Below, piece by piece: positions 917 through 20,480 of a DNA stretch of 20,480 nucleotides (positions are counted from its first letter, which is position 1; every line of letters starts with the position of its first letter). Both the position numbers and the translations under genes were made by a program. The stretch is taken from positions 62,001 to 82,480 of the forward strand of contig UYFQ01000611.1 of NCBI GenBank assembly GCA_900617105.1, read 5' to 3'. This DNA is from Hydrurus foetidus (lineage: Eukaryota). Under the pieces are notes generated by a model. That model searched no databases and was not told where the DNA came from. It saw nothing but the letters and a program-made list of their open reading frames with translations.

Positions 917-1113
917 ATTATTGGATGCCTGCCAAGGCAGGATAGGTTCTCTGGAACGAACAGTCCAGGAGCCAAAAATATCAGCGTTAATAACGGTCGT
1001 GTGAATAACCTCGATCTTTTCAAGTGTGTCACACATTGTTTAAGCATCACGGTGGATGTCAATGTCATAAATTTACTCTATCTAAATTTACGTTCTACTG
1101 TTTCAAGTCACCC
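917..1113 (+). repeat. Split direct repeat A1 (197 bp)
   Basis: ATTATTGGATGCCTGCC...TTTCAAGTCACCC is identical by eye to 7101-7297. Confidence 0.97.
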
Positions 1114-1129
1114 GAGTTTTTAAGTAACA

Positions 1130-2767
1130 ATGTCAAGCAACAGTTCAGCAAGCGCTTCTTGCGCATCAGCTTTTGGAGTAGCACTTTTTCCTCATTATGA
1201 GATTCTTCCAGATGCTCTAATCAAGGGTTTGGAGATTGCGGCAAACTCAAGTATGCTATCAACAGACACTGCCGGTGACATGTTCAATTGCACCCGAGCA
1301 AACAAAGTCCCGCTCAGTGAGATTCAGCCAGATGCAGTGATAATGATTCCACTCTTCGTACCTGAAGATCCCATTGTTATGGACTCCTCAGCTCTTGCTG
1401 TGAGTCCAATGATGTACGTACAATTGGCCGGTCAACCGCAGCCGAGAGCAATCTTCGGCAACTGCATCGCTTACTCTGTAGATGTCGTACACCGAGAGGT
1501 CGAGATCGGGGCAGGAATTTACTTTCCACCTCCACCACACCTCTTGGTTGTAAAACCCTCCATTATCAGCCAAATAAGTATCACTGCGCCGGCAAAGAAT
1601 GACTATGCCGAGACAGACGAGATGCAGCAGTCAAAACGTCTTTGTGTTCGGTCGCTGGAAAATAGGGGTGAGCAGGCCGACGAGAGCCGTGATTCATCCG
1701 TCGAGAAAGGTATGTCAAAATACATACTTGATCTTGATGGAGGCAAGCATGCGACTCGTAATAAGTCAGACATCGCCCAAAGGGAGAAGGACTTGGGGTT
1801 TGCATTTAGAGCAGTCGATAGGGAGCGGTGGGAATACTTAGCCGGCACAGACTTTCTGCTACAATCTGCCGACTATCGGATAACGATCATACAGCAAGGT
1901 CGCATGCGTGCTGACCATAGGCACAAAGCATTCCTCTCATGTGGTGTCCTCGACAGAGTTCAGGGTCTGAGCGTTACTCAGAAGACTAGCGACACGAAAC
2001 TCTTGATAATGGGTCAAATTCTGGTCGAAGGCGACGAGCCGTCGCTTTCACTGGAAGACTTTCTTGACGCAGCCGATAAGCTAGCTCTATCAACATGCAG
2101 CTCTGTTTGTCCCGATCAGAATCGCCCCATGGTTGCAGTCTTAAAAAACTTGCAAGTGGCGTTGGAGGTATTTCTATCTGGAAAGTACGAAGGTGTTTTC
2201 AACGGCTTCATTGTTGCTTTGGAGGGAGTACATCGTCCCTTGGAGCTTGTTGCGGCTGACTTCTTAAAATATTCTGTTGAGGAAGTACTGCGAAAGTTCT
2301 TTCGCGCAGTGAGTTCAGAAAGGGTCTCAACGACTGTAGAGGAAGCACCCATCACAAATCCAGTAGAGTGCGCTGCATTCCTTAAATCTCTGTTCGTGAA
2401 ACTAGCCGATGATTTGTCTGATCACCGTCATCGTGCCGTAGAGGAAGAATACTTCAGAATGCGAATTATTCGGGAAGCGAGAATCTTTGAACGAAATGTT
2501 TCATGCGAGAAATCGAAAGTTAAAAGCGGGTCTCCCGCAGCAAAAAAGAGTGATGTCCCTTTGCGACCTTGCGCAGGACATCTAGGGAAACAGTTGAAAG
2601 CCCTTTATCCTGATGGACGTCCATACAAATGCGTTTATGGAAAGGCGTGCAAATTTCGGCACGATGGGAAAGCAGGAAAGACAAATGAGCAATTGATGCA
2701 AATCATCGCTCAATTACCGCTAACGGCGCAGGAGGACCTGCACAAAGTAATAAAGAAGACAGCTTGA
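1130..2767 (+). CDS. Gag-like ORF1 of the YR retrotransposon with C-terminal CCCH zinc finger
   Basis: 545-aa ORF starting 16 nt after A1. C-terminal motif CAGHLG...CVYGKACKFRH is C-x19-C-x5-C-x3-H. First-ORF position in the element. Confidence 0.8.
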   Translation: MSSNSSASASCASAFGVALFPHYEILPDALIKGLEIAANSSMLSTDTAGDMFNCTRANKVPLSEIQPDAVIMIPLFVPEDPIVMDSSALAVSPMMYVQLAGQPQPRAIFGNCIAYSVDVVHREVEIGAGIYFPPPPHLLVVKPSIISQISITAPAKNDYAETDEMQQSKRLCVRSLENRGEQADESRDSSVEKGMSKYILDLDGGKHATRNKSDIAQREKDLGFAFRAVDRERWEYLAGTDFLLQSADYRITIIQQGRMRADHRHKAFLSCGVLDRVQGLSVTQKTSDTKLLIMGQILVEGDEPSLSLEDFLDAADKLALSTCSSVCPDQNRPMVAVLKNLQVALEVFLSGKYEGVFNGFIVALEGVHRPLELVAADFLKYSVEEVLRKFFRAVSSERVSTTVEEAPITNPVECAAFLKSLFVKLADDLSDHRHRAVEEEYFRMRIIREARIFERNVSCEKSKVKSGSPAAKKSDVPLRPCAGHLGKQLKALYPDGRPYKCVYGKACKFRHDGKAGKTNEQLMQIIAQLPLTAQEDLHKVIKKTA

Positions 2768-2813
2768 CTACAATCGAAAGCTGATAGCGCAGTGGCGTTC
2801 CAACAATCACCCG

Positions 2814-3266
2814 GTAAGTTGAATATCAAATCGTTTGTTACCTTCGGTTGACCAATGTGTCGATGACTTGATCTGTGCTGAGTTCTGTCTATGCCGACTA
2901 CTCTGCTACGAACTTGTCGTTTGAGAGTATGTCCTGATGACATCGAGTCTGTCATCAGTATACTCTCTCCCGAAGAAGGTTTAGACATTGTCTTGGTTGC
3001 ATCGTGTCTACTGTACAATGATAGTAGAAATAGCCATTGTCACTGCAAAGCAGTGATCCTACCGTCCATGTGATGGTAGGAGCTCTCGATGCATCGGTTT
3101 AATGTTGCAACTACCACTGTGGCCGTCAATGGTGCGTACTTCACAGCGGTAGTTGTAACCCGGTGGTTTGCTTCGTCTCATCATAATGATGACGTCGCGC
3201 CGGATGGGGTCGCGGTAGACACCAAATCACGGTGACTAATTATACTCCTATGAATTCACAACACAG
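2814..3266 (+). other. Predicted 453-nt spliceosomal intron between gag and RT
   Basis: Donor CCG|GTAAGT at 2813/2814, branch-like TGACTAAT at 3233-3240, acceptor ACACAG| at 3266 (alternative TAG at 3269). Removal joins the gag frame to the RT frame in phase. Confidence 0.65.
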
Positions 3267-5545
3267 TAGGATATCATCGAGTACACACGCCGTCGTGCAT
3301 ACCACTAAAGACCCCATCAATTGTAGCAAAAATTGAACCTCGACCTACAATACCTGTAATCAAAGAAATCCGGAATGAGAAACAGATCCTTCCATCATAT
3401 CCTTCTCCAATTGACACCATCACTCTCTCGACACTGGACTGTACTGTCCCGCCACTTATTGGATGGGCAAATGCCATTTTCACTGCAATTGAAAGCACAT
3501 CGTCAAGCACGATATCCGCACTACTACACGAAGCGTCCGAAGCATCAAAAAATGATTTCGATGAAGAGTCAGCAAGAATATGGGCTGACGGGTACGAGTT
3601 TCCCTCTGAATACTTACGCTCAGACGCTGGGTGTCTTCAAGCTGCACAGCTAGACTTCGTGTCAATGGTCCGCCGTCGTTTACAGACACTGTCTCCAAAC
3701 CGACTCAATCATCACCGAGTTTCAAAATTAAGAAAAGACAACCCAGAAATACGGCTGCTGAGTGAGTTGGTCGATGGCATGTGGGTTCCGAAACCAATCG
3801 GTTTCCGACCGAATGGACTCGATCTGCCTACACCTCTCAGGGCGACATACTTAGCAGTAGCGCCGGCGGTGAATAAAATGCTTGGAGAGATCGTGGAGCA
3901 GAAGTTAGCGTTTTTGATTGGATACGACTTGGCTAAACAGCACGTTCCCAACCTACATCTGTGCAAGGCGCACTGGACAAAGAAAAAGGGCAAGGCGTCC
4001 GGACGGCCTCTGGGCGACCTGACCTTCGTAGATGGGACGCCCCTCAACACACCAGAAATGTCAACGGCTGCTGCAGAACACTACGGTGCTATTCTACACC
4101 CAACTATAGAAGCAATATCAATGATGATATGTGAATTCTGGTCCAAGACTATAAGGACTGACCCTGCAATTGAATGGGGTCGCATGAGATTATGGAAAAT
4201 GGATCTGAAGGGAGCCTACACGTTGCTATCTTTCCGTCCGGAGGACGTCGGGTTATTCGGAATGTTGCTGACCGGCAACATGGTGTACTTTCAAATAGCA
4301 GGAATATTCGGCTGGGCCGGCACCCCTGCGGCTTTTCAGGTCGTAACAAGAGCTATCCAATGGGAACTACAGCACTGCTTACGTAGCTCTACGATCATGT
4401 ATGTCGATGACATCATCGGCGTGTGCTTAGACACCGACATCACCAGCGATCTCAATCTCACACGGAAGGTATGCACCAGCCTTCTAGGCCCAACCGCCGT
4501 TGCCGATGACAAGACAGAGATAGGCCGGCGCATCGACGTTATTGGTTACGTCATTGACTTAGATAGCCAGAGGGTATCCATTGCAAGAAAGAATTTCTTG
4601 AACGCTCTGCATGGATTCGCAAGTGTTGACCTCACAAAAAATATGACCTTACGGATGGCACAAAGGTTAGCGTCATGGTCGAGTCGTTACGGCAAGATAT
4701 GCCGGGTCATGCGCCCGTTCTGTGGAGCTTTAAATCGGCTAATAGCGGGAAGAACAGAAGTTCACGCATCATTCTCTTTGTCATCTGAAGCCAAGATCAC
4801 TATCAAAACATGGCAAGCAATGTTATGTCTAGTTCACTATCAAGAATCACGGTTCACAAGGACGCTTGAATCCTTCTATACCGCGACGCCAATCACGGTA
4901 GCTGAATTTGATGCATCCCTGATTGGTGCAGGAGTAATCTGGTACAAGAGAAATAACAACGCAGAGGAAGTTGTGGGAGTCTGCGCGGTGGAGTTCTCGT
5001 TTCTAAAGTTTGGCGTCGACTCATCATTTCAAAATTTATCGGAGTTCATCGGGGCAATAGTATCAGTGATAGGACACGTGGCCATGGGGAATCGTGGACG
5101 CACGCTAGCCCTTCGTGGGGATAGTATCACAGCGTTGACTTGGGCGATCACGGAACGGCCCAGGGGATCCATAGTGACCAAGGCAGCCATGATCTGGATA
5201 CTGCTATGTGTAGCTGCGGACATCGATATCAGGGAAGTGACGCACATACCGGGAAAGGATAACGACAAATGCGATCAATTATCAAGAAGGGGACTGTCTC
5301 CTCATAACTCAGTCCATGAGCATGCTGAAGCACTGGGTATAGGCGGGGCGCAAGTCCTACAAATGCAAGATAATCTTCATGTTATGACGTTGCTGAGGCT
5401 TTGCGATCCAGCAACTGGAATCGATACTGATGAGGAATTCACCACCTTCTGGACGACTGCCCGCTCCCATATCGACGCTCTACTGGCTGGACACCCTCTC
5501 CCTTTCCCAGCCCTACCGAACACATTCATCCCTACACCTCATTAG
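3267..5545 (+). CDS. Reverse transcriptase-RNase H (pol) of the YR retrotransposon
   Basis: RT motifs KMDLKGAY, FGWAGTPAAF, YVDD (4400-4411). RNase H motifs FDAS, NLSEF, GDS, HIPGKDNDKCDQLSR. Frame +2 is open from 3254, about 135 codons upstream of the ORF-track GTG at 3659, with no start codon there. Confidence 0.93.
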
Positions 5546-5603
5546 CCGCGTATCCAGCCCAATAGACTCCTCCATCAAATCCTCGATCTTTTTACGGTTT
5601 CAG

Positions 5604-6805
5604 ATACCAAGAGTCGGCTCACGGTCAAGAATCGGACGGACCTAGCTGAGTTTATTGGGCGGTCTGTATTACCTAGTACTCTGCGGACCTATGACGGTCA
5701 CTGGCGAATGTGGAAAGATTTTCTCCGGACAGAAACGTCAGTGAGGGATCCGCTCCTGAGGGGTTACTTAGAAGATGACAAATCGTCATTGATTAGCTTG
5801 TTCCTCCGTCAGCGACATGAGGAAGGCTTTCGAGCAAAGGGAGCCACTGCAGTGACGGCTGGTGTTCGAATGCAGTTCGCGCAAGCCCTGCAGTCTACTG
5901 CCTTTCTGAATTCTTCGGTGGTCGCCACCGCACGACAGTCCTGCCGACTTACGCCCGATGAGCTTCGCGTCAGAAGAGATTCAGGGGCAGCCAACACTGT
6001 CAAGCTGCCAGCTTGTGAAGGCATGCTAGCTCACATGAGAGGCCGATTGTGGGATGGCCAGTTATGGAGCAGTAAGGGTCTCAAAGACCGAATGGTATAC
6101 ATCGCTTGCATGTTCGCGTACGACATGAGTGCAAGGATATCCGAGTACACTATCCCAGAACCTCGCGCGGTCGATCACTGTGCGAGGGTTAACGACCTGA
6201 CCTTTTACTCACAGACTCCGGATGGAGTCATCGGCAGTTCTGGTAGCACTTTGGCAAGAGAATTGATTGGCGTCAGTGATGATCACCTATTCGTGAAGAG
6301 AGTTTTAGAATGCCGGGTCCAAACTGCAAGTTCCAAAGGGAAGGAAGTTATTAAGCCAAAGCTCATCGGTCGCAGGTCAATAGCAGAGTCGCAACTGCTG
6401 AATGATCTCGTACTGTGGATCGTCAGGAGTGGAGCCTGTGGAACCGACGAACTGTTTAGTATACGAGAAGCCTCCAGACAAAAGACATCCCTTAGAGGAA
6501 GGACGGTGCGAGACGAAATCAAGATCACCTGCAGAGCCCTGAATCTGCCTCCGAACTATTTCAGCTCACACTCCCTGCGCAAAGGAGGCATAACCCACAT
6601 GAGGGCATCAGGTGCGACAGAAGATGACCGCCGTGACCGAGGCAACTATGCCCCAGGATCACAGGTAATGAATTTAACATACGACTATGCGACTGGTATG
6701 GGACCCCTAGCAGCTAACAGTATCCTTGGTGGATATCAACCAACGATATCTGATGTGCGACGGCTTCTGCCTATCGAACGTGACACTACTTCGCGGGATG
6801 CATAA
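5604..6805 (+). CDS. Tyrosine recombinase of the YR retrotransposon (first ATG at 5708)
   Basis: Catalytic-type motifs ARISEY (R), HSLR (6569-6580) and a C-terminal Tyr in LTYDY. The N-terminal STLRTYDGHW..W..F helix lies upstream of ATG 5708. The frame is open from 5546, directly after the pol TAG. Confidence 0.92.
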
Positions 6806-6822
6806 TGCCCTTGGGAAGTATG

Positions 6823-7100
6823 GGTGAAGGGCATCGTCATTTCAGGCTTGCTGGTACCCGGCCCGAGTCGAATTCAATGATGAACAGACCTCGAGGGGGG
6901 GGGGGCAAGCTGAAATATCCTGGCACGCAAGCGAAGCCATTTGTAAGCTAACATTACTGTCGCTTTGCTTCAGCAACTGACATGGTCTCCTGTATACTAT
7001 CGCGTCCCTCTGGGGGATATTAAAGGAAGGGGGGGAATGTCTCTCGATACCCGAGGATGGAGCCACCGACATAGCAACGCATGTCTCGGAGAGGAATAGA
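6823..7100 (+). repeat. Split direct repeat B1 (278 bp)
   Basis: GGTGAAGGGCATCG...GGAGAGGAATAGA is repeated at 7363-7637 with about 4 substitutions and a 3-nt length difference at a G-run. Confidence 0.96.
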
Positions 7101-7297
7101 ATTATTGGATGCCTGCCAAGGCAGGATAGGTTCTCTGGAACGAACAGTCCAGGAGCCAAAAATATCAGCGTTAATAACGGTCGTGTGAATAACCTCGATC
7201 TTTTCAAGTGTGTCACACATTGTTTAAGCATCACGGTGGATGTCAATGTCATAAATTTACTCTATCTAAATTTACGTTCTACTGTTTCAAGTCACCC
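7101..7297 (+). repeat. Split direct repeat A2 (197 bp)
   Basis: Identical to 917-1113 and abuts B1 directly. Confidence 0.97.
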
Positions 7298-7362
7298 CGT
7301 AGCCAGCCATATCCTATCAAGTTGTTTTTATGTTTTGTTATCTGACCACTTGCGTGTCAGAC

Positions 7363-7637
7363 GGTGAAGGGCATCGTCATTTCAGGCTTGCTGGTACCCG
7401 GCCCGAGTCGAATTCAATGATGAACAGAACTCGGGGGGGGGGCAAGCTGAAATATCCTGGCACGCAAGCGAAGCCATTTGTAAGCTAACATTACTGTCGC
7501 TTTGCTTCAGCAACTGACATGGTCTCGTGTATACTATCGCGTCCCTCTGGGGGATATTAAAGGGCGGGGGGGAATGTCTCTCGATACCCGAGGATGGAGC
7601 CACCGACATAGCAACGCATGTCTCGGAGAGGAATAGA
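7363..7637 (+). repeat. Split direct repeat B2 (275 bp), right terminus of the element
   Basis: Near-identical copy of 6823-7100. Confidence 0.96.
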
Positions 7638-7860
7638 ACCCATAATCACAAATATTCTGCTCTTTCGGATTCTCATTTCGGTAGGAATCGTGAATACGAG
7701 AATTCTGATTCGGTTCTGGTTCTGGTTCTGATTCCCACGACGCGACTCCTTCAATTCTTAGTCATCTCATCTCTCATCTCCTATCGGCCATAAGACAATA
7801 TAAGTACAGACCTGTCCAAATCTCTGCGAATCCAAGGAACAATCAGAGGTGGTGACAACT

Positions 7861-8544
7861 ATGATGCGATCTGTTTTCCGCTTTCCGGTGAAAAAAATTG
7901 CGTACAACAGCTTCAGAGCTGTAAGTTACAAACCAGTACCTTCTCTTGTCGACGACAGCTCACTGCCGACGCCATGGGCAACAATCCTGGACCGTACAGC
8001 AGAGATATTTTTCATGACCGAAATCTTCAGAGGAATTTGGCTAACTTGCGAAACTGCCATGAAGCCCAAAGTGACAATTAATTATCCTTTCGAGAAAGGA
8101 CCACTCAGCCCCAGATTCAGAGGAGAGCACGTCCTACGTCGTTATCCTAGTGGCGAAGAGAGATGCATCGCGTGCAGACTTTGTGAAGCTATTTGTCCCG
8201 CACAGGTAACAAGTTTTCTCCAGCACCTGTCATGAGTAAATTTCTGTTGGCACTGACACGTCGTACACGACAACACCCACTAGGCCATTACCATCGACTC
8301 GGAGATGCGCGAGGACGGCAGTAGAAAGACCACCAGATACGATATCGACATGACTAAATGCATCTACTGCGGCTATTGCCAGGAGGCGTGCCCTGTCGAT
8401 GCGATTGTCGAGGGACCCAACTTTGAGTTTTCAACGGAGACTCACGAGGAGTTGCTGTACGACAAAGAGAAGCTCCTCTCAAATGGAGACAAGTGGGAAG
8501 TCGCAGTTGCCAGAAATCTCGCTGCCAACCACATGTACCGCTAA
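7861..8544 (+). CDS. NDUFS8: NADH:ubiquinone oxidoreductase Fe-S subunit 8 (TYKY/NuoI), nuclear-encoded mitochondrial; exons 7861-8205 and 8284-8544, 201 aa
   Basis: [40 protein letters not shown] and [31 protein letters not shown] give two 4Fe-4S motifs. 78-nt intron 8206-8283 (CAG|GTAACA...CTGAC...CACTAG|). The R/S-rich N-terminus resembles a mitochondrial presequence. Confidence 0.97.
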
Positions 8545-11084: not shown

Positions 11085-14000
11085 TCACAGGTCTCGAAGG
11101 AAAGAAGGCAGCTGAGCCTCGGATTTCTCTCTTTCTCTTTCTCTCTCCCATTCTTTTTCTCTTTGCAGCGCCGCTGATTGCATTTGCGCTCGTGACTTTT
11201 CTTCAGCCACGCCCATACCCACTCCCATACTGAGACGCTGTGATATCAAAAGACAAAAGAAGTTGAGAAGGAGATGAGGTAAGAGGAGAGGTGATTAGAA
11301 GGTGGTTGGATGTGAGGTGAAGTGTAATTCTAGTCTGGAAAACAGAGTATTATTCTTTGATAATGACGGTTGTAATCATTTTGTGGCACACACAGACCAA
11401 GCCGTAGCTGTACTATGATGTGAAGATGGCTCTTATAATGAGGTTAAGATCTACAAGCAATGGTATGACAAATTCAGGAGACTACGCTACGACATGAAGG
11501 AGTCTTGTGTGATAGAGACTATTGTGTGATGTGAGAGAGGCTGTTAAAGGGAATGTCCACCTGCTGCTGAGCTGCCCACATGTGATCCAGCAGTGACTCT
11601 CTTTCAGCTGAGATTCCTCTAGTAAGGGCACTGAACCCCGACCCCTGAGAGGATGGAAAGGGACCGTCTACATTGTGCATCGACTGTGACTGTGACTGAG
11701 GGTACTGCTGCTGTCTGAGCAGTTGGGAGGAGTGTTGCTGAGACGAGAGGGACCAGTTATCGAAGTCACTGGTGTCTGCCATCATGCCCATTCCCGTGCT
11801 AGGAGATCCTTCTCGCATCATAGGCGATGCGTCTCTGTGCAGATCTCTGTGTCCTTGCAGAAGGGGAGATGAGGAAGACTTCATTAATCCGTTCATGCTA
11901 CTGCTGTTGTTGTTCGTGATGTTGGCGTTGTAGTTGAGACGATTTGTCTGGGCGATGAAAGCTGATGTGTTGGGGGCCATAAGACGCTTTGACTGGTGGC
12001 CGGGTAGGCTGTGAGATAGCGGGGACGTGGAGGAGGTGGATCCCTGGTCAGATAGAGGCGATCTGCTTGCACGTGACCCGGGATAAGGTGAATTAGAGTG
12101 GTGATCTAATCTCTGCGTTTGACTCTGTCCTCTGCCTAGCTGTCCTTGCATTTGATGGTGGCCTGCGAGTGCCATACGGTTTGCCCTCATTCTGGAGTTG
12201 CCTTCCTCAGGATGATCAACCCAGTTGACATCGAACTCCTCTTCAGGCGGGGGATACATGTAGCTGTTGTTGCTGGGTCGGGTGTGTGCACTTGGAACCG
12301 GACTGTACCTCCCTGTGAAAAATGAAGATTGTAGGATAGGGTGAGAAAGGAGGATTAATAGATACTGTAAGATAGGAGGAGAGAAGAATAGGGTTCGAAT
12401 TTAAGTATAGGGTAGGAGTATAGGATAAAGTGAAAGGAGTACTGGGTAAGATGGGAGTAGTGATGATAAGGAAGAAGTAGTCAAGAAAATGCATGTAGTG
12501 CGTGTACATTGAGAAATATCGTTAGCCAGTGGTGTCAAAATAGATAAATCATGAAATACACATAAAACGAATTCCAAGACAACTCATACAATAATTTGCA
12601 TCTAATGTACCTGCTGTGGGTGGTGAAGCGCCTTGATGTGACCCTGGGCTGGACCCCATATTGGGGTATCCTCCTTTGAACCCCTGTTTCGCTCCATTGA
12701 TGGGCAGTGGAGGAGTTTTACTCACAGCTGGGGTGGATGCGGTACTGGCACCGAACTTACCGGGCACCCACACTTGCATTTCCTTTACCACAAAGGGCTG
12801 TATGAAGGGAGGGGTAGGGGGTTTGAGGGGAGGGGAGGGTACCGTGATAGGACTCTGATGTTTGGATATTGTCTGCAAAGGGGAGAGACTCTTGTACTCA
12901 TGTGGACTGTCCGTAGATTTCATCGACACGGATGTGGGAGGACGGGTGCTAGATACATTAGGAGGGGCTTGGCCTGAAGTAATGTTCTGAGACCTTCTTT
13001 GGAGGGTTTTCTGATGCAGGTAGTAAGCATTTCTGTCATCACCATCAGGACCCACATTGGTGATGCCACTGGAAGGTGTTCTTACACCCGTGTAGCCGAG
13101 GGGGTAAGACATAGGATCCCTGCCAGAGCTTTCTCTGGAGAGTAGAGGACTGCCGAATTGAGAGAAAGCACGCATATTTTGATCCATCTGTCCTTCTGGA
13201 AGGTTGATGAAGAAATCCCCACTGCCTTGATCGGATTCGAATGATGAGAAGGACTTGGATATAGTCCTGTCAGACAGGCCGCGGTTCTCCAGTCCCTCCT
13301 GTGCTTCCCTGTGGGAGAAGGCAGAAGGTGTAGTAGATCCACCCTCTGAAGCTGTCTCGCTGTCACCTTGATCCTTGTACTCTTTGACGCTCCTAGTCGT
13401 AGCGACAGGTGACACCTCATACACACTCTCCTGATCTGCTCCCTTCACTACACAGCTGTTTGGGTGCAGTAGAGATCTCAGATGGGACGAGCCGTCTGGC
13501 AGAGGTACAGGGACGGGGAGAGGGGTGGCGGTGGGTGTGTTCGTGTCCATGGTTGCACTGATCTTCATCTTCAGGGTTGACTCGGCTAGTCGGAAGTTCG
13601 CTTCGATGCCTTCAACGTCAGACGAGAGGAGGGAGGAGATGGTTGCCCCACAGTTAGACCGAAGCACTGACGGGTCCTTCACTACAATGCTCTTGGAGAG
13701 GGTAGGGAATGTCTCACTCACGACACGCATGATTCTGTCAGAGCCTTCGAAGGCACAGCTGGCAGACTCCGTGTCGGTGTTAGTGTTCTCTGTTTCCTGT
13801 ATGGTGTAGAGGATGCTCTGCAGACCAGACAAGCCGGCTGATAGGATGCGCTTCACAGTGCTGCATCGTATCTGCGTAGCCAACTTGGTCGACTTAGTGC
13901 CTATATCGCACAGGTTGGTCCATGCGTGTGTGGGGTCCAGTATACACATGCTGGTACAGTTGTCATTCGTGCGCTCATTGAAGGAGAATGCAGGCTTGCT

Positions 14001-15269
14001 GTTGGCTCGGCTTCTCTCGGAGGTGGTCTTCTTGTCGTTGACTTCACTGTCACAGGAAGCATCCTCCTCGTCTGTCTCTCCGCTCTGCCGACTGCTGCTC
14101 ACGCGTGAGACAGTGTACTGAGGTTGTAAAGAAAGGCCCAGTCTTGCCCTCACCTTGCACGCCATGGCACAGAGGGGGGTATTTCCAGTGACGGGTACAG
14201 GGATGGACCGGACAGAGGGATCGCAAGAGGGGGGGCTGGAGGTCTTAGACTGTATGCTTGACTCGTCCATCTCACTGCTGAGACAGTCACCGGTATAACT
14301 GCTGCTACTTCCGGGCAGGGCGATCGCACCGGTGATGCTGATAGCCCACTTGTTCCATTCGAAACGGGAAAATACGTTGAGGAAGCCGAGCAGCACTTGG
14401 AATGGGTTTAGAACTTCTGTTCCGGCATTAGTACTGCCAGCCATGATGTTGGAGGAGAACAGCCACATCAACATAGTCTCGATGACTCTGTCGCCGAGCA
14501 GCGTATTGATGGCATCTTTCACAGCTGCGAGAAGTTGTGCAGGATAGATGGGATAGATGTCAGGGTTCAAGTAGTTGTCGATGATAATATTGAGTACAGA
14601 GTCATGAGTTAAGTCTAATGACGTACCAGAATCATCGCTTTTATCTTGGCCAATTTGTATGCTTGGCGCTTCGAAGTTGCACCAGGCTCTCACAAGCAAT
14701 ATAGATCGCTTAAGCAAACTGTCGTTTCCTACGCATGCGTTTGCATCTTCGAGCATCGAAGCGAAGGCAAGAGAAGAGATGTTATTAGACTTTATTGTCA
14801 CGAGAGTGCCGTCTACAACTGCCTCGAGACTCTTTTCCTTCGGGAAAAAGGAGACTCTTTCGACGGTGGCATTTTCCATCTCCTTTCTGTTGAGGACAGG
14901 CCCTTCTGAGTCCATGCAGCTCCTGTCCTCGGATGACTGTATGCACAGAGCTTCGTACAAGCTGAGGTACCACTTGTCGCATTGGGGGCTCTCAGCCTTG
15001 TCGTAGAAAAGAGTGAGCTCGATTTGTTCGGAGTTGCGCCGTCCAGAATTGGTTCCGGTGGGCGATAGTGAAAGAGAGGTCTTCGAGAGGGTTCCTCCGA
15101 CACAAATCGGCTTCAAGCCAGAGTATTCCGTGGATAGCGCTCCTATCCAATTCGCGATGGATCGTTTGTGATTCCTCACATTATCGGCAGATTCGGAGTC
15201 CAAGATGCTTAGTAGAAGGAGGTTTGTCGCCTGAGAAACACATGAGTCTGCTACGCATAATCCCTCCAT
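11085..15269 (-). CDS. PAP/OAS1-substrate-binding-domain nucleotidyltransferase-family protein with long disordered C-terminus; predicted exons 15269-14627, 14524-12611, 12312-11561, 11237-11085 (about 1153 aa)
   Basis: Motifs VGNDSLLKRSILLVRAWCNFE, IETMLMWLF, PFQVLLGFLNVFSRFEWNKWAISITG and ILDPTHAWTNL resemble, from memory, plant/algal NTase-family proteins (LFKRSIILIKAWCYYE...FLEFFSKFDW...IDPL..NNLG). Three GT-AG introns join the exons in frame (3462 nt total). Confidence 0.75.
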
Positions 15270-17827: not shown

Positions 17828-18430
17828 ATGACAAGGGCCCAAATAAAGAAGAAAGCGGCTGCTAACGCAGCCGCCTCTGCTTCTTCAGCTCCAAGCGCTT
17901 CGCGCAGTGCTCCTCTCACTGAGAAGGAAAGGCACAAAGCGGAGCAGGCCCTGTAAAGAAAACATCGAGAAATCGATACAGGCTCTGGCCAAAGAAGCAA
18001 TACATGTTTCGGCTACCCCAACTCGTCTTGAGGACGAACAAATTTTCTTCCAAAGCGTCATAGCAGCAACAAAAGAAATGCAAGCAGCTCACAACTAGAG
18101 CAAGCACAAATAGCTGCTGCACAAGCTGCTGCCGACGCTTTAGAACCCTCAAACGACGAGCTCCTCGGGTTGGCACCCGAGGAAGCCGAGGGCGAGACAG
18201 ACTCTCCCTCGATACCCGCGGGTACTTAAAAAGAGGGGAGAAATCTCGATACTCCCTCCGCGACTGCAACAGATCGGTGCAGAGGACGATCTGTTCGAAC
18301 CATCAGTCGACGCCAAAGTCACAACAACAAAGGCATCCGACACCGGCAAGGCCGAGGCCGACGCCGAGTCAGATCCGGAGGCTGACGCCGACGGTGACGA
18401 CAATGCCAACAACAACGACGACGACAAACC
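17828..18430 (+). pseudogene. Frameshifted N-terminal part of the LTR-element gag
   Basis: MTRAQIKKKAAANAAASASS... can only be continued by switching between frames +2 and +3 near 17954, 18090, 18273 and 18430, and it has an in-frame TAA near 18227. Confidence 0.6.
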
Positions 18431-20480
18431 CCCGACGAGTCCGACGACGACAACGACAGTAACGTCGACGACGTTAACGACACGGGAGGCGATGGTGGCA
18501 ACCCCGACAGCTCCTCCGACGAGTCCGACGCAAGTAGTGGCGACGGGGACGACGGAGAGGGTGACGGGGACGACGACGGGAACGACAACAGCGACGACGA
18601 TGAAGCGAAAGCTGAAGTCGAAGTCGAAGACGACGAGGAGGTCGAACCCGAAAAGTCTAAGCCCAAGGACAAGAAGTCCCTTAAGATAAAACCCCTCGCC
18701 AAGAAAAAGTCCCCAAAGGCGGGTCCCAAACCCGCCCCAAAGGACAAAAAGGTGAAAACCAAAGCCGATGCCAAATCCGGTAAAACACACCGCGCGCAAA
18801 AGGCGGAAAACTCGGAAGAGGATTCCCCTCCACAACGCAAAGCGGGTTTGCAAACCTCCATCATCAACATGAAGGAGGCGTACTACCTCACTCGAGAAAA
18901 ACTTCTCGACGACGCTGATAAAGCAGCAAGAGCGTTTTACGAACAAGCATACCGCCCCGGTATGTTAACCAGTTGGGAAATGCTAATCGAAATGGATGCC
19001 ATCCAAACGATCCGCGACCAGTTGCTTCGATGCAAAAGCGAGACAGGTTACAACACCAAGACTTGTCTCGCCTGGCCAACGGTCGAAGGCAAAACGTTAA
19101 CGTTAAAGAACATTGCAAATGATCTTAAAAAGATCTTTTACAAAAACAAACGTACGTCTTCCCATTTCGACTTCGAAATGAAGTTGAAAAATTGCAAATT
19201 CCGCATCAGCTGGAAAGATCCTTCTGTTGAAGACAGAGCTCTCTCTGAGTTCCGTGACATCCTACTCGGATTCTGGACGTCATACGACAATATCGATGCC
19301 GACATGCAAAATGATATCTGTAAGGCCTTCTACAAGAAGCTGCCAAAGAACAACAAGTTTACAGACAATTTCATGGCAAAGACAAAACGTAAGACGAAAA
19401 AGACCGGGAAAGATACCATCTTCAAAATGCTCACGCGTCTTGTCGTCATGCTGGGCGAAGCACGCCAGATGATCAAAGACGCGGAGGACATGGGAGGTCT
19501 CGACTTCGTCTTCGAGTCAAAGCTCACGCCAACAGACCAAGACGACGTTGAGGTCGCACCTCACCGTGACAGCCACTCGGCCAACGCCTACAAGGCAATC
19601 CCAAAACGTCAGGTGGACCCTGAGTCGTCCGGCCTCAGCCGGGCGACCAACTTCTGTCACACATGTGGCAAAAAGGGACACAACCGTTATGAATGCCAAA
19701 ACCACATGAACCCTCACTGCAACCGTAGTCATCGCACTTGGTCGCATTCTGAGGAGGCAAAGGACTTCAAACGGATTGGTCACGAATTCTTCGTACCAAA
19801 TGTGTACATCAACGGGGAACTTACCCGGGACACCAACAACCCCGGGGCAGCTACCTACGTGTACCCATCTGACGATGTGGAGAACGACTTCTCTCCTCCA
19901 GGGAGAGCCCAAGACGACCGTCCGACCAAGAAACAAAAGCTGGCCACCAACAACAACACCAAGTACAACAAGTACAAGAGCAACCAGACTCAACCGGATA
20001 GGGACAACGATCGTTCCAACACGAACAAGTTGAGCTCCAACTACAAGGGAAAAAGTAAGTCACAACTTGCTAACCCAAGTACGGACATAATCGAGTACGC
20101 TCGAGAATTACCGTCAATGAAACAACTTCTATCAGCTGTATTAACTGAAAACATAGATGATTTCTTACAAGTTCACATATCTCTACCACAGATCCGATCG
20201 CCAACTTCAAACCAAGTCGCGACCGACCTGACGATCGCAGGGACAACTCGCACCAGGCGGAGAGCAAGGAGGGGGACAGACATAAATCTTCCTCTTCTTC
20301 CTCCTCCTCCAACCAATACGTACCAAACTAGAGGCATGGAAGCCTTAGCCCAAATCGACACTGGATGTCAAGTCGGGGACGTCATCAACGGTAGAGTCCT
20401 TCGGGGCCTCCGTGGCGAAACCCACTTGAGGAATTCCGACTCACCCATGTGGATGTGTAGTGGCTTAAATAATCAATGTA
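18386..20480 (+). CDS. Gag-protease (gag-pol) ORF of the LTR retrotransposon, open to the window end
   Basis: Frame +2 has no stop from 18386 to the end (absent from the ORF track; first ATG 18869). It has an acidic block then a Lys/Pro-rich block, zinc knuckle CHTCGKKGHNRYEC (19655-19696), and protease DTG at 20357-20365. Confidence 0.88.

Follow-up and report, generated by a model that had tools for sequence, protein, structure and literature searches.

The window analysed here is a 20,480-nucleotide (nt) stretch of Hydrurus foetidus contig UYFQ01000611.1 (assembly GCA_900617105.1, positions 62,001 to 82,480), and it carries an intact Ngaro-type tyrosine recombinase (YR) retrotransposon, classed by structure. 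A gag-like gene, a reverse transcriptase (RT) with RNase H (RH) and a tyrosine recombinase follow one another on one strand without long overlaps, all three open reading frames (ORFs) lie in frame 2, and these ORFs and both repeat pairs are intact. The RT and YR frames are open and ATG-less upstream, with the first ATG at codon depths of 137 (3665) and 54 (5708), respectively. A first-pass annotation made from the sequence alone had reported these open extensions, and its coordinates, frame and phases all proved right on re-check, as did its placement of the element among YR retrotransposons, which the repeats, ORF order and RT and YR folds specify as Ngaro-type. To account for the start-less enzymes we propose, with moderate confidence and from the sequence signals, two donors and two acceptors, all in phase 1, serving two separate introns: 1709^5604 for the recombinase, and readthrough of the gag stop plus 2813^3270 for the RT. 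The parts of the element are as follows.

917..1113, forward strand, A1 split direct repeat, 100% identical to 7101–7297
1130..2767, forward strand, gag-like ORF1 of 545 amino acids (aa), ATG at 1130 and TGA at 2765–2767, with 44 homologs at 38–93% identity
3270..5545, forward strand, RT/RNase H coding region (RT ORF 3254–5545, first ATG 3665)
5604..6805, forward strand, tyrosine recombinase coding region (YR ORF 5546–6805, first ATG 5708)
6823..7100, forward strand, B1 repeat, 98–99% identical to 7363–7638
7101..7297, forward strand, A2 repeat, abutting B1 and identical to A1
7363..7638, forward strand, B2 repeat, element end

Classification and protein domains

The repeat order A1-[ORFs]-B1-A2-B2 represents split direct repeats as in Ngaro (PMC8547959), and gag, RT/RH and YR in this order on a single strand are also reported for Ngaro (PMC3266345). 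The RT is of the LTR-retroelement type with RNase H, and is accompanied by neither a protease nor a DDE integrase, and the recombinase has the R, HxxR and Tyr residues. A methyltransferase gave no hit in 58 aligned ORF2 members, with only 93 residues following the last RNase H motif, and Ngaro elements are defined as lacking this domain (PMC4157794). DIRS1-like and PAT-like assignments were ruled out, as a methyltransferase domain is missing, and so are the inverted repeats and internal complementary region (ICR) of DIRS1.

The proteins of the window gave no clear Pfam hit. RVT_1 matched 32 of the 58 aligned ORF2 members, all weakly (best E 4e-4) and not the ORF2 of the window itself, and the RT profile returned no hits when run against the sequences of solved structures. 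The predicted ORF2 model (predicted local distance difference test, pLDDT, 83) matches the RT folds of Moloney murine leukaemia virus (MMLV), Ty3 and cauliflower mosaic virus (CaMV), and RNase H was assigned from the predicted fold together with motifs that we take to be those of this enzyme. The ORF3 model (pLDDT 92) matches Cre/Tre over its length, and a profile search gave XerD/Cre with the R...HxxR...Y motifs present. ORF1 has a weak CCCH knuckle near its end, and an ESM Atlas search with Gag residues 1–193 gave no usable hit.

Homolog sets comprised 120 of 341 proteins for RT, 44 for Gag and 150 of 707 for YR, plus cluster members. At the DNA level, 64 related loci were collected, 61 from one metagenome scan and three from binned genomes, nearly all at 30–45% RT identity; relatives at 55–70% are known from protein only. 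A sister copy ~80% alike, found in runs X1 and X2, covers part of the element. The signals on which the argument turns are listed below.

1634..1651, forward strand, basic K-R motif, 20–25 codons before D1
1707..1715, forward strand, donor D1, AAG/GTATGT, exon end 1709, phase 1, top donor score of the element
2765..2770, forward strand, leaky-type stop UGA-CUA (GCT-TGA-CTA-CAA), type II context
2768..2813, forward strand, predicted readthrough stretch, 15 open codons plus one base, unalignable in the sister copy
2811..2819, forward strand, donor D2, CCG/GTAAGT, phase 1, second-best donor of the element
2814..3269, forward strand, spacer and predicted intron of 456 nt, non-coding, with stops in all three frames
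2923–2967, 3007–3028, 3039–3057, 3058–3080, 3104–3159, 3170–3198 and 3216–3238, forward strand, predicted spacer hairpins, seven probable
3233..3240, forward strand, branch-site-like TGACTAAT, partly in a predicted hairpin; the block 3224–3256 aligns in the sister copy
3261..3269, forward strand, RT acceptor, tandem CAG (3266) and TAG (3269), both phase 1, TAG conserved
5588..5603, forward strand, YR acceptor with pyrimidine tract, phase 1

Probable readthrough of the gag stop

The stop of gag is a UGA followed by CUA. UGA-CUA/CGG is known as readthrough type II and UAG-G as type III (PMC3159437), hence the context here is type II. Twenty-four of the related loci, in which 100 or more open codons precede one lone stop in the frame of the RT, gave 17 distinct gag–pol junctions, and all 17 have one in-frame stop and no spacer, with TGA-C in eight, TAG-G in five, TGA-G in four and TAA in none. 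Within this set the linker of L004 shifts frame further on, and the loci outside it are incomplete or spacer-bearing (L002, L042). Closer to the window, 25 of the 29 Gag homologs that were scored have the gag stop eight residues past a conserved motif (the other 15 of the 44 were cut or shifted). Based on these junction contexts and the fixed stop position, readthrough without splicing is likely a family trait and the older route to Gag-Pol. In unspliced RNA of the element itself, however, readthrough would terminate at 2849. A caution comes from Candida Tca2, whose gag-UGA-pol junction by itself directed no readthrough (PMC2194720).

A conserved candidate donor within gag

The best donor in 917–6800, according to a phase-blind weight matrix of our own build, is D1 at 1709/1710, in phase 1 and in the middle of gag, followed by D2 as second. 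D1 was overlooked in the first-pass list of signals. The glycine at D1 is invariant in all 42 of the 44 Gag homologs that cover the site (38–93% identity), as read from protein and not from DNA; the residue before it is Lys in 34, and the residue after it is Met in 20, Thr in 21 and Ser in one. No second Gag column combines Gly with a following Met/Thr mix, and the D1 column ends a variable linker. Met and Thr would correspond to ATG and ACG readings of a GTAYG donor, both of them donor-compatible.

Distant relatives point the same way. Fifteen of the loci have a complete gag; in 12 of them the top-scoring donor is in phase 1 (4.2 expected), and in nine it is both in phase 1 and 1037–1418 nt before the gag stop. 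None of the 15 has this donor in the 200 nt that follow the stop. The mid-gag donors of L007, L020, L056, L028 and L004, with offsets worked out by hand on the Gag profile, fall within ~35 codons of a common point. Most distant loci with a mid-gag donor need no RT acceptor.

Upstream of D1 lies the basic K-R motif, a putative nuclear localisation signal (NLS), which recurs in 39 of 42 rows, the window included, no more than 45 columns ahead of the donor glycine. A joint of 960 to 1701 in one X2 contig (34-letter side) was too weak to use, and perhaps represents a diverged copy alike only at the repeat and D1.

The predicted recombinase fold starts shortly after a putative phase-1 acceptor

In the predicted YR model the first helix spans residues 7–18 after the acceptor, upstream of the first ATG, hence translation from 5708 would lose that helix and a portion of the next. 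The RT region is predicted to be disordered up to ~3450 with helices from ~3450, and conserved RT helices lie upstream of the first ATG. A phase-1 spliced entry to YR, as first proposed from this sequence alone, fits the distant loci, where the best acceptor before the YR fold by a phase-blind score is in phase 1 in 14 of 19 (8.6 expected). Phase covariation was not seen for L047 and L025. The recombinase is most likely made from 1709^5604, with no need of readthrough, because D1 is conserved in homologs and phase-1 donors recur mid-gag in distant loci.

A separate observation on this part of the relatives is that several ORF3s are very long (750–1750 aa) with the recombinase match covering only part (L017 6716–10252, L027 4519–9768, L019, L042, L043, L064), and that a 760-nt non-coding gap separates RT from YR in L025 (3010–3767).

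A folded, non-coding spacer before the RT

No other part of the element is as structured as the spacer, which as a whole folds at z −4.9, with none of 100 shuffles as stable, and in which four neighbouring windows of 150 nt, among 92 tested, gave z −2.8 to −5.5. The spacer had no match in Rfam, no protein likeness to the linkers of homologs and no repeat elsewhere in the window or the related loci. The sister copy aligns at 2569–2770 (40 differences), 2843–2944, 3056–3095 and 3224–3256, with inter-block lengths of 71 versus 72 and 101 versus 111 letters (indels of 1 and 10 nt). Its first alignment runs to 2770 and stops short directly after UGA-CUA; past 3256 it keeps TAG 3267–3269 and the codons that follow, but not ACACAG. 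Likeness to the 93% homolog P0171 begins at the same boundary, 3269. The indels and blocks of the sister copy and the starting point of P0171 thus argue that the spacer is non-coding, with a branch block and an acceptor at 3269 that have been kept.

These comparisons uphold the branch site and acceptor that the first-pass annotation placed before the RT, and both CAG (3266) and TAG (3269) are indeed in phase 1, although the conserved site is the TAG and not the ACACAG that had been favoured.

At the 5′ side of the spacer, D2 exceeds chance as a donor, with only two donors in 917–6800 and five on both strands of the whole window reaching its score. P0146 and P0157, the sole two long in-frame Gag extensions, both end G-K-stop, which is the reading of a phase-1 G/GTAAGT. 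The host is intron-bearing, with canonical introns at 8206–8283 and, on the minus strand, 12610–12313, and features of U2-type introns (GT, branch and AG, conserved and in phase) are found for D1/5603 and for branch/3269, and indirectly for D2.

The gag–pol intron is patchy among relatives. In P0002 (68%) the frame is open for at least 306 codons before an anchor tryptophan that lies 272 codons from the stop in the window, hence close relatives of this type need no intron. L002 has a 371-nt AT-rich spacer between gag and RT (3298–3704); its acceptor is strong and in phase 2, and a phase-2 donor of low score directly precedes the gag stop, so its phase-1 mid-gag donor could not serve its RT, and it may possess an independent gag–pol intron without need of readthrough. 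In L042 a pyrimidine-rich spacer of 733 nt (1655–2388) separates gag, which has a TAA stop, from an RT ORF with its own early ATG, and no good donor/acceptor pair was found in it. Among RT homologs, an intron-like hydrophobic start was observed in 11 of 47 long extensions and in none of 18 open linkers, a weak signal given that nine of the 18 reach the same value further in. A donor at the same offset in L034 was dropped, as the stop before it is not a gag stop.

Proposed expression of the element

We infer the splices, the readthrough and the role of the hairpins from the sequence signals, phases, domain identities and conservation described above. Unspliced RNA would give Gag (545 aa) and serve as the genome. 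Splicing 1709^5604 would join Gag residues 1–193 to the recombinase in a 593-aa Gag(N)-YR, carrying the basic NLS-like motif onto the recombinase, and readthrough of UGA-CUA combined with the 2813^3270 splice would give a Gag-RT/RH of ~1,320 aa. As relatives make the same Gag-RT/RH by readthrough alone, we read the 456-nt intron as a later addition. The template of the RT would then be an RNA different from its mRNA, and action in trans has been suggested for DIRS-1 (PMC7192593). The hairpin array may be a cis signal confined to genomic RNA, for packaging, export or splice control, and this restriction would explain how the intron escapes loss by reverse transcription.

Taken further, and more tentatively, the RT would sit behind two serial gates, a structured intron and a leaky stop; an ancient mid-gag donor would build the Gag(N)-recombinase; the folded intron would mark genomic RNA in the manner of a retroviral packaging signal; and gag–pol introns would have been gained more than once (phase 1 here, phase 2 in L002) on top of family-wide readthrough.

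Several observations weigh against the two-intron proposal. For the RT entry, D2 was seen directly in no relative's DNA, and 2771–2842 is unalignable and one base shorter in the sister copy, so the phase of D2 is not readable there. The phase-blind acceptor score places 3623 and 3266 above 3269, no compensatory changes occurred among 12 mappable spacer substitutions, and the phase-2 donor of L002 scores only −0.2. Type II readthrough is described with a 3′ stem-loop 8–12 nt past the stop; the stem predicted 3′ of the UGA (2771–2853) is not significant (z −0.3), and since its 3′ arm lies in the intron, spliced RNA keeps UGA-CUA only. For the recombinase, L047, L044 and L028 are exceptions among the 15 best donors, L011, L012, L013, L025 and L035 are misfits among the 19 YR acceptors, and 5603 ranks second in the window after the TAG of the RT stop. 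The nominal P values of 3e-5 (donors) and 0.007 (YR acceptors) are too small, since there is some relatedness among the loci. Among 4250 candidates no Gag-YR or Gag-RT fusion protein was found, which is weak evidence, and Gag profiles detected no fusion among the fetched RT homologs or 150 of 707 YR homologs, mostly DNA gene calls. Finally, as D1 and the RT acceptor are both in phase 1, the sequence alone also permits 1709^3270. The contigs of three runs contained no joint at 1709, 2813, 3269 or 5603, although these contigs behave as DNA and are uninformative on splicing.

The junction 1709^3270 belongs to the main alternative, which we consider unlikely and in which D1 feeds both enzymes, 1709^3270 giving a 951-aa Gag(N)-RT/RH and 1709^5604 the 593-aa Gag(N)-YR, with the leaky stop and D2 left as relics of readthrough. 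D1 outscores every other donor, is conserved best and fits the phase of the two acceptors, the frame stays open to the end across either join, and the readthrough stretch is unalignable in the sister copy. This leaves UGA-CUA, the 15 open codons and the second-best donor unexplained, however; the G-K-stop ends of P0146 and P0157 point to a donor kept at the end of gag, and in relatives the RT is a fusion to full-length Gag.

The first-pass model, with readthrough and the donor at 2813 feeding both RT and YR and D1 without a role, appears quite improbable. Every phase fits, both joins are open and D2 is a consensus donor, and the leaky contexts found family-wide, in 17 of 17 distinct junctions, favour its readthrough step. 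With a single donor behind the stop, neither the D1 signature of 41 of 42 homologs nor the phase-1 mid-gag donors of distant loci are accounted for. In none of 15 loci does the best donor fall up to 200 nt past the stop, and D1, stronger and far better conserved, would give YR without readthrough. The claim of one donor for both enzymes is thus not supported. The junction 2813^5604 may occur as a minor form.

Very improbable, in our view, is an unspliced RT, with the folded spacer acting as an internal ribosome entry site or internal promoter, a non-AUG start near 3270, and only YR spliced from D1. The strong folding of the spacer speaks for this, and the gag-UGA-pol junction of Candida Tca2 held a minor promoter and directed no readthrough in a reporter (PMC2194720). 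Against it, the spacer is bounded by a donor and, after a branch site, an AG of matching phase, and in this copy the conserved boundary falls on a codon that is not among the usual near-AUG starts. Rfam offers no match, and no pseudoknot was found, although pseudoknots were not modelled. Less probable still is that the spacer is an insertion or decayed linker which inactivates RT expression in this subfamily, with splice-like signals arising by chance: close relatives such as P0002 need no intron, but three ORFs and both repeat pairs are intact, the sister copy keeps the layout with conserved blocks, and P0171 begins at the same boundary.

The two-intron proposal names exact junctions, 1709^5604 and 2813^3270 as against 1709^3270 and 2813^5604. 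The recombinase is probably a Gag fusion of defined length, which matters for annotating or expressing such enzymes. YR retrotransposons are widespread, and the translation route of ORF2 and ORF3 is not stated in the available text of the literature found; if true, the model explains how these elements make start-less enzymes.

Flanking genes and further observations

Between A2 and B2 lie 65 unique T-rich bases (7298–7362) with no counterpart after A1, possibly a signal for the 3′ end or the result of a shortened A1. The terminal repeats (6772–7638) have a summed contig depth 30–100× that of the coding part, and 4688–4722 is touched by many unlike contigs; both regions are probably common to many related elements or solo repeats.

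Some 220 nt past the end of B2, a host 4Fe-4S protein gene (7804–8544, forward strand, Fer4 hits) contains the 78-nt intron 8206–8283, and its product resembles complex I subunit NDUFS8/NuoI. A large host gene on the minus strand (11519–15269) has a weak Cid1-type nucleotidyltransferase hit and the pyrimidine-rich intron at ~12610–12313. An open 694-aa frame leaving the window (18398–20479, forward strand), with an acidic low-complexity start, a weak zinc knuckle and a D-T-G protease-like motif near its end, is probably the gag-protease of an LTR retrotransposon.

In L024, L007 and L056 the end of YR is followed head-to-tail by the start of gag, an arrangement that circles, tandem copies or collapsed assembly would give. 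L063, L064 and L065 are eukaryotic-type YR retrotransposons in records titled bacterial metagenome-assembled genomes, probably through binning contamination. Of two viral collections, one gave a single unrelated locus and the other none.

Comparison with known systems

The element largely agrees with Ngaro types 1–4 of Cafeteria burkhardae (PMC8547959), which share split direct repeats, a length of ~6.7 kb, a gag-like ORF1, RT/RNase H in ORF2, a YR in ORF3 with HxxR and Tyr, and no methyltransferase. It differs in that A2 and B2 are 65 unique bases apart, and in its start-less RT and YR with conserved splice signals, as the available text on the Cafeteria elements describes no readthrough, intron or splice. 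More broadly, the open literature available to us (including PMC7192593, PMC8547959, PMC9341512, PMC3783388, PMC3266345, PMC6681497, PMC5633606, PMC4157794 and PMC12477816, in the parts accessible) contained no description of readthrough or native splicing for Ngaro/DIRS elements, which the Goodwin and Poulter papers or Repbase reports may describe.

A single stop likewise divides an in-frame gag and pol in gammaretroviruses (UAG-G), alphavirus-type UGA-CUA/CGG contexts (PMC3159437) and Tca2 (PMC2194720), and the stop contexts seen in the family are those of readthrough types II and III (PMC3159437). Unlike in systems that use readthrough only, a splice would also be needed here, and no significant 3′ stem survives it.

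As proposed here, splicing separates genome from enzyme mRNA in foamy viruses. There pol is made from a spliced mRNA, although foamy pol has its own start, and in retroviruses packaging signals sit behind the main donor. In plant Ty1/copia elements a spliced short GAG RNA makes Gag (PMC5580714), hence splicing likewise divides the transcript into genome and mRNA, but yields Gag and not the enzymes. Neither copia nor foamy virus is known to make a single product by readthrough together with splicing, or to attach half of Gag to a recombinase. The novelty of the present element lies in its two-donor layout with a folded intron, and, if true, a splice and readthrough in series for one protein would be an unusual recoding design.

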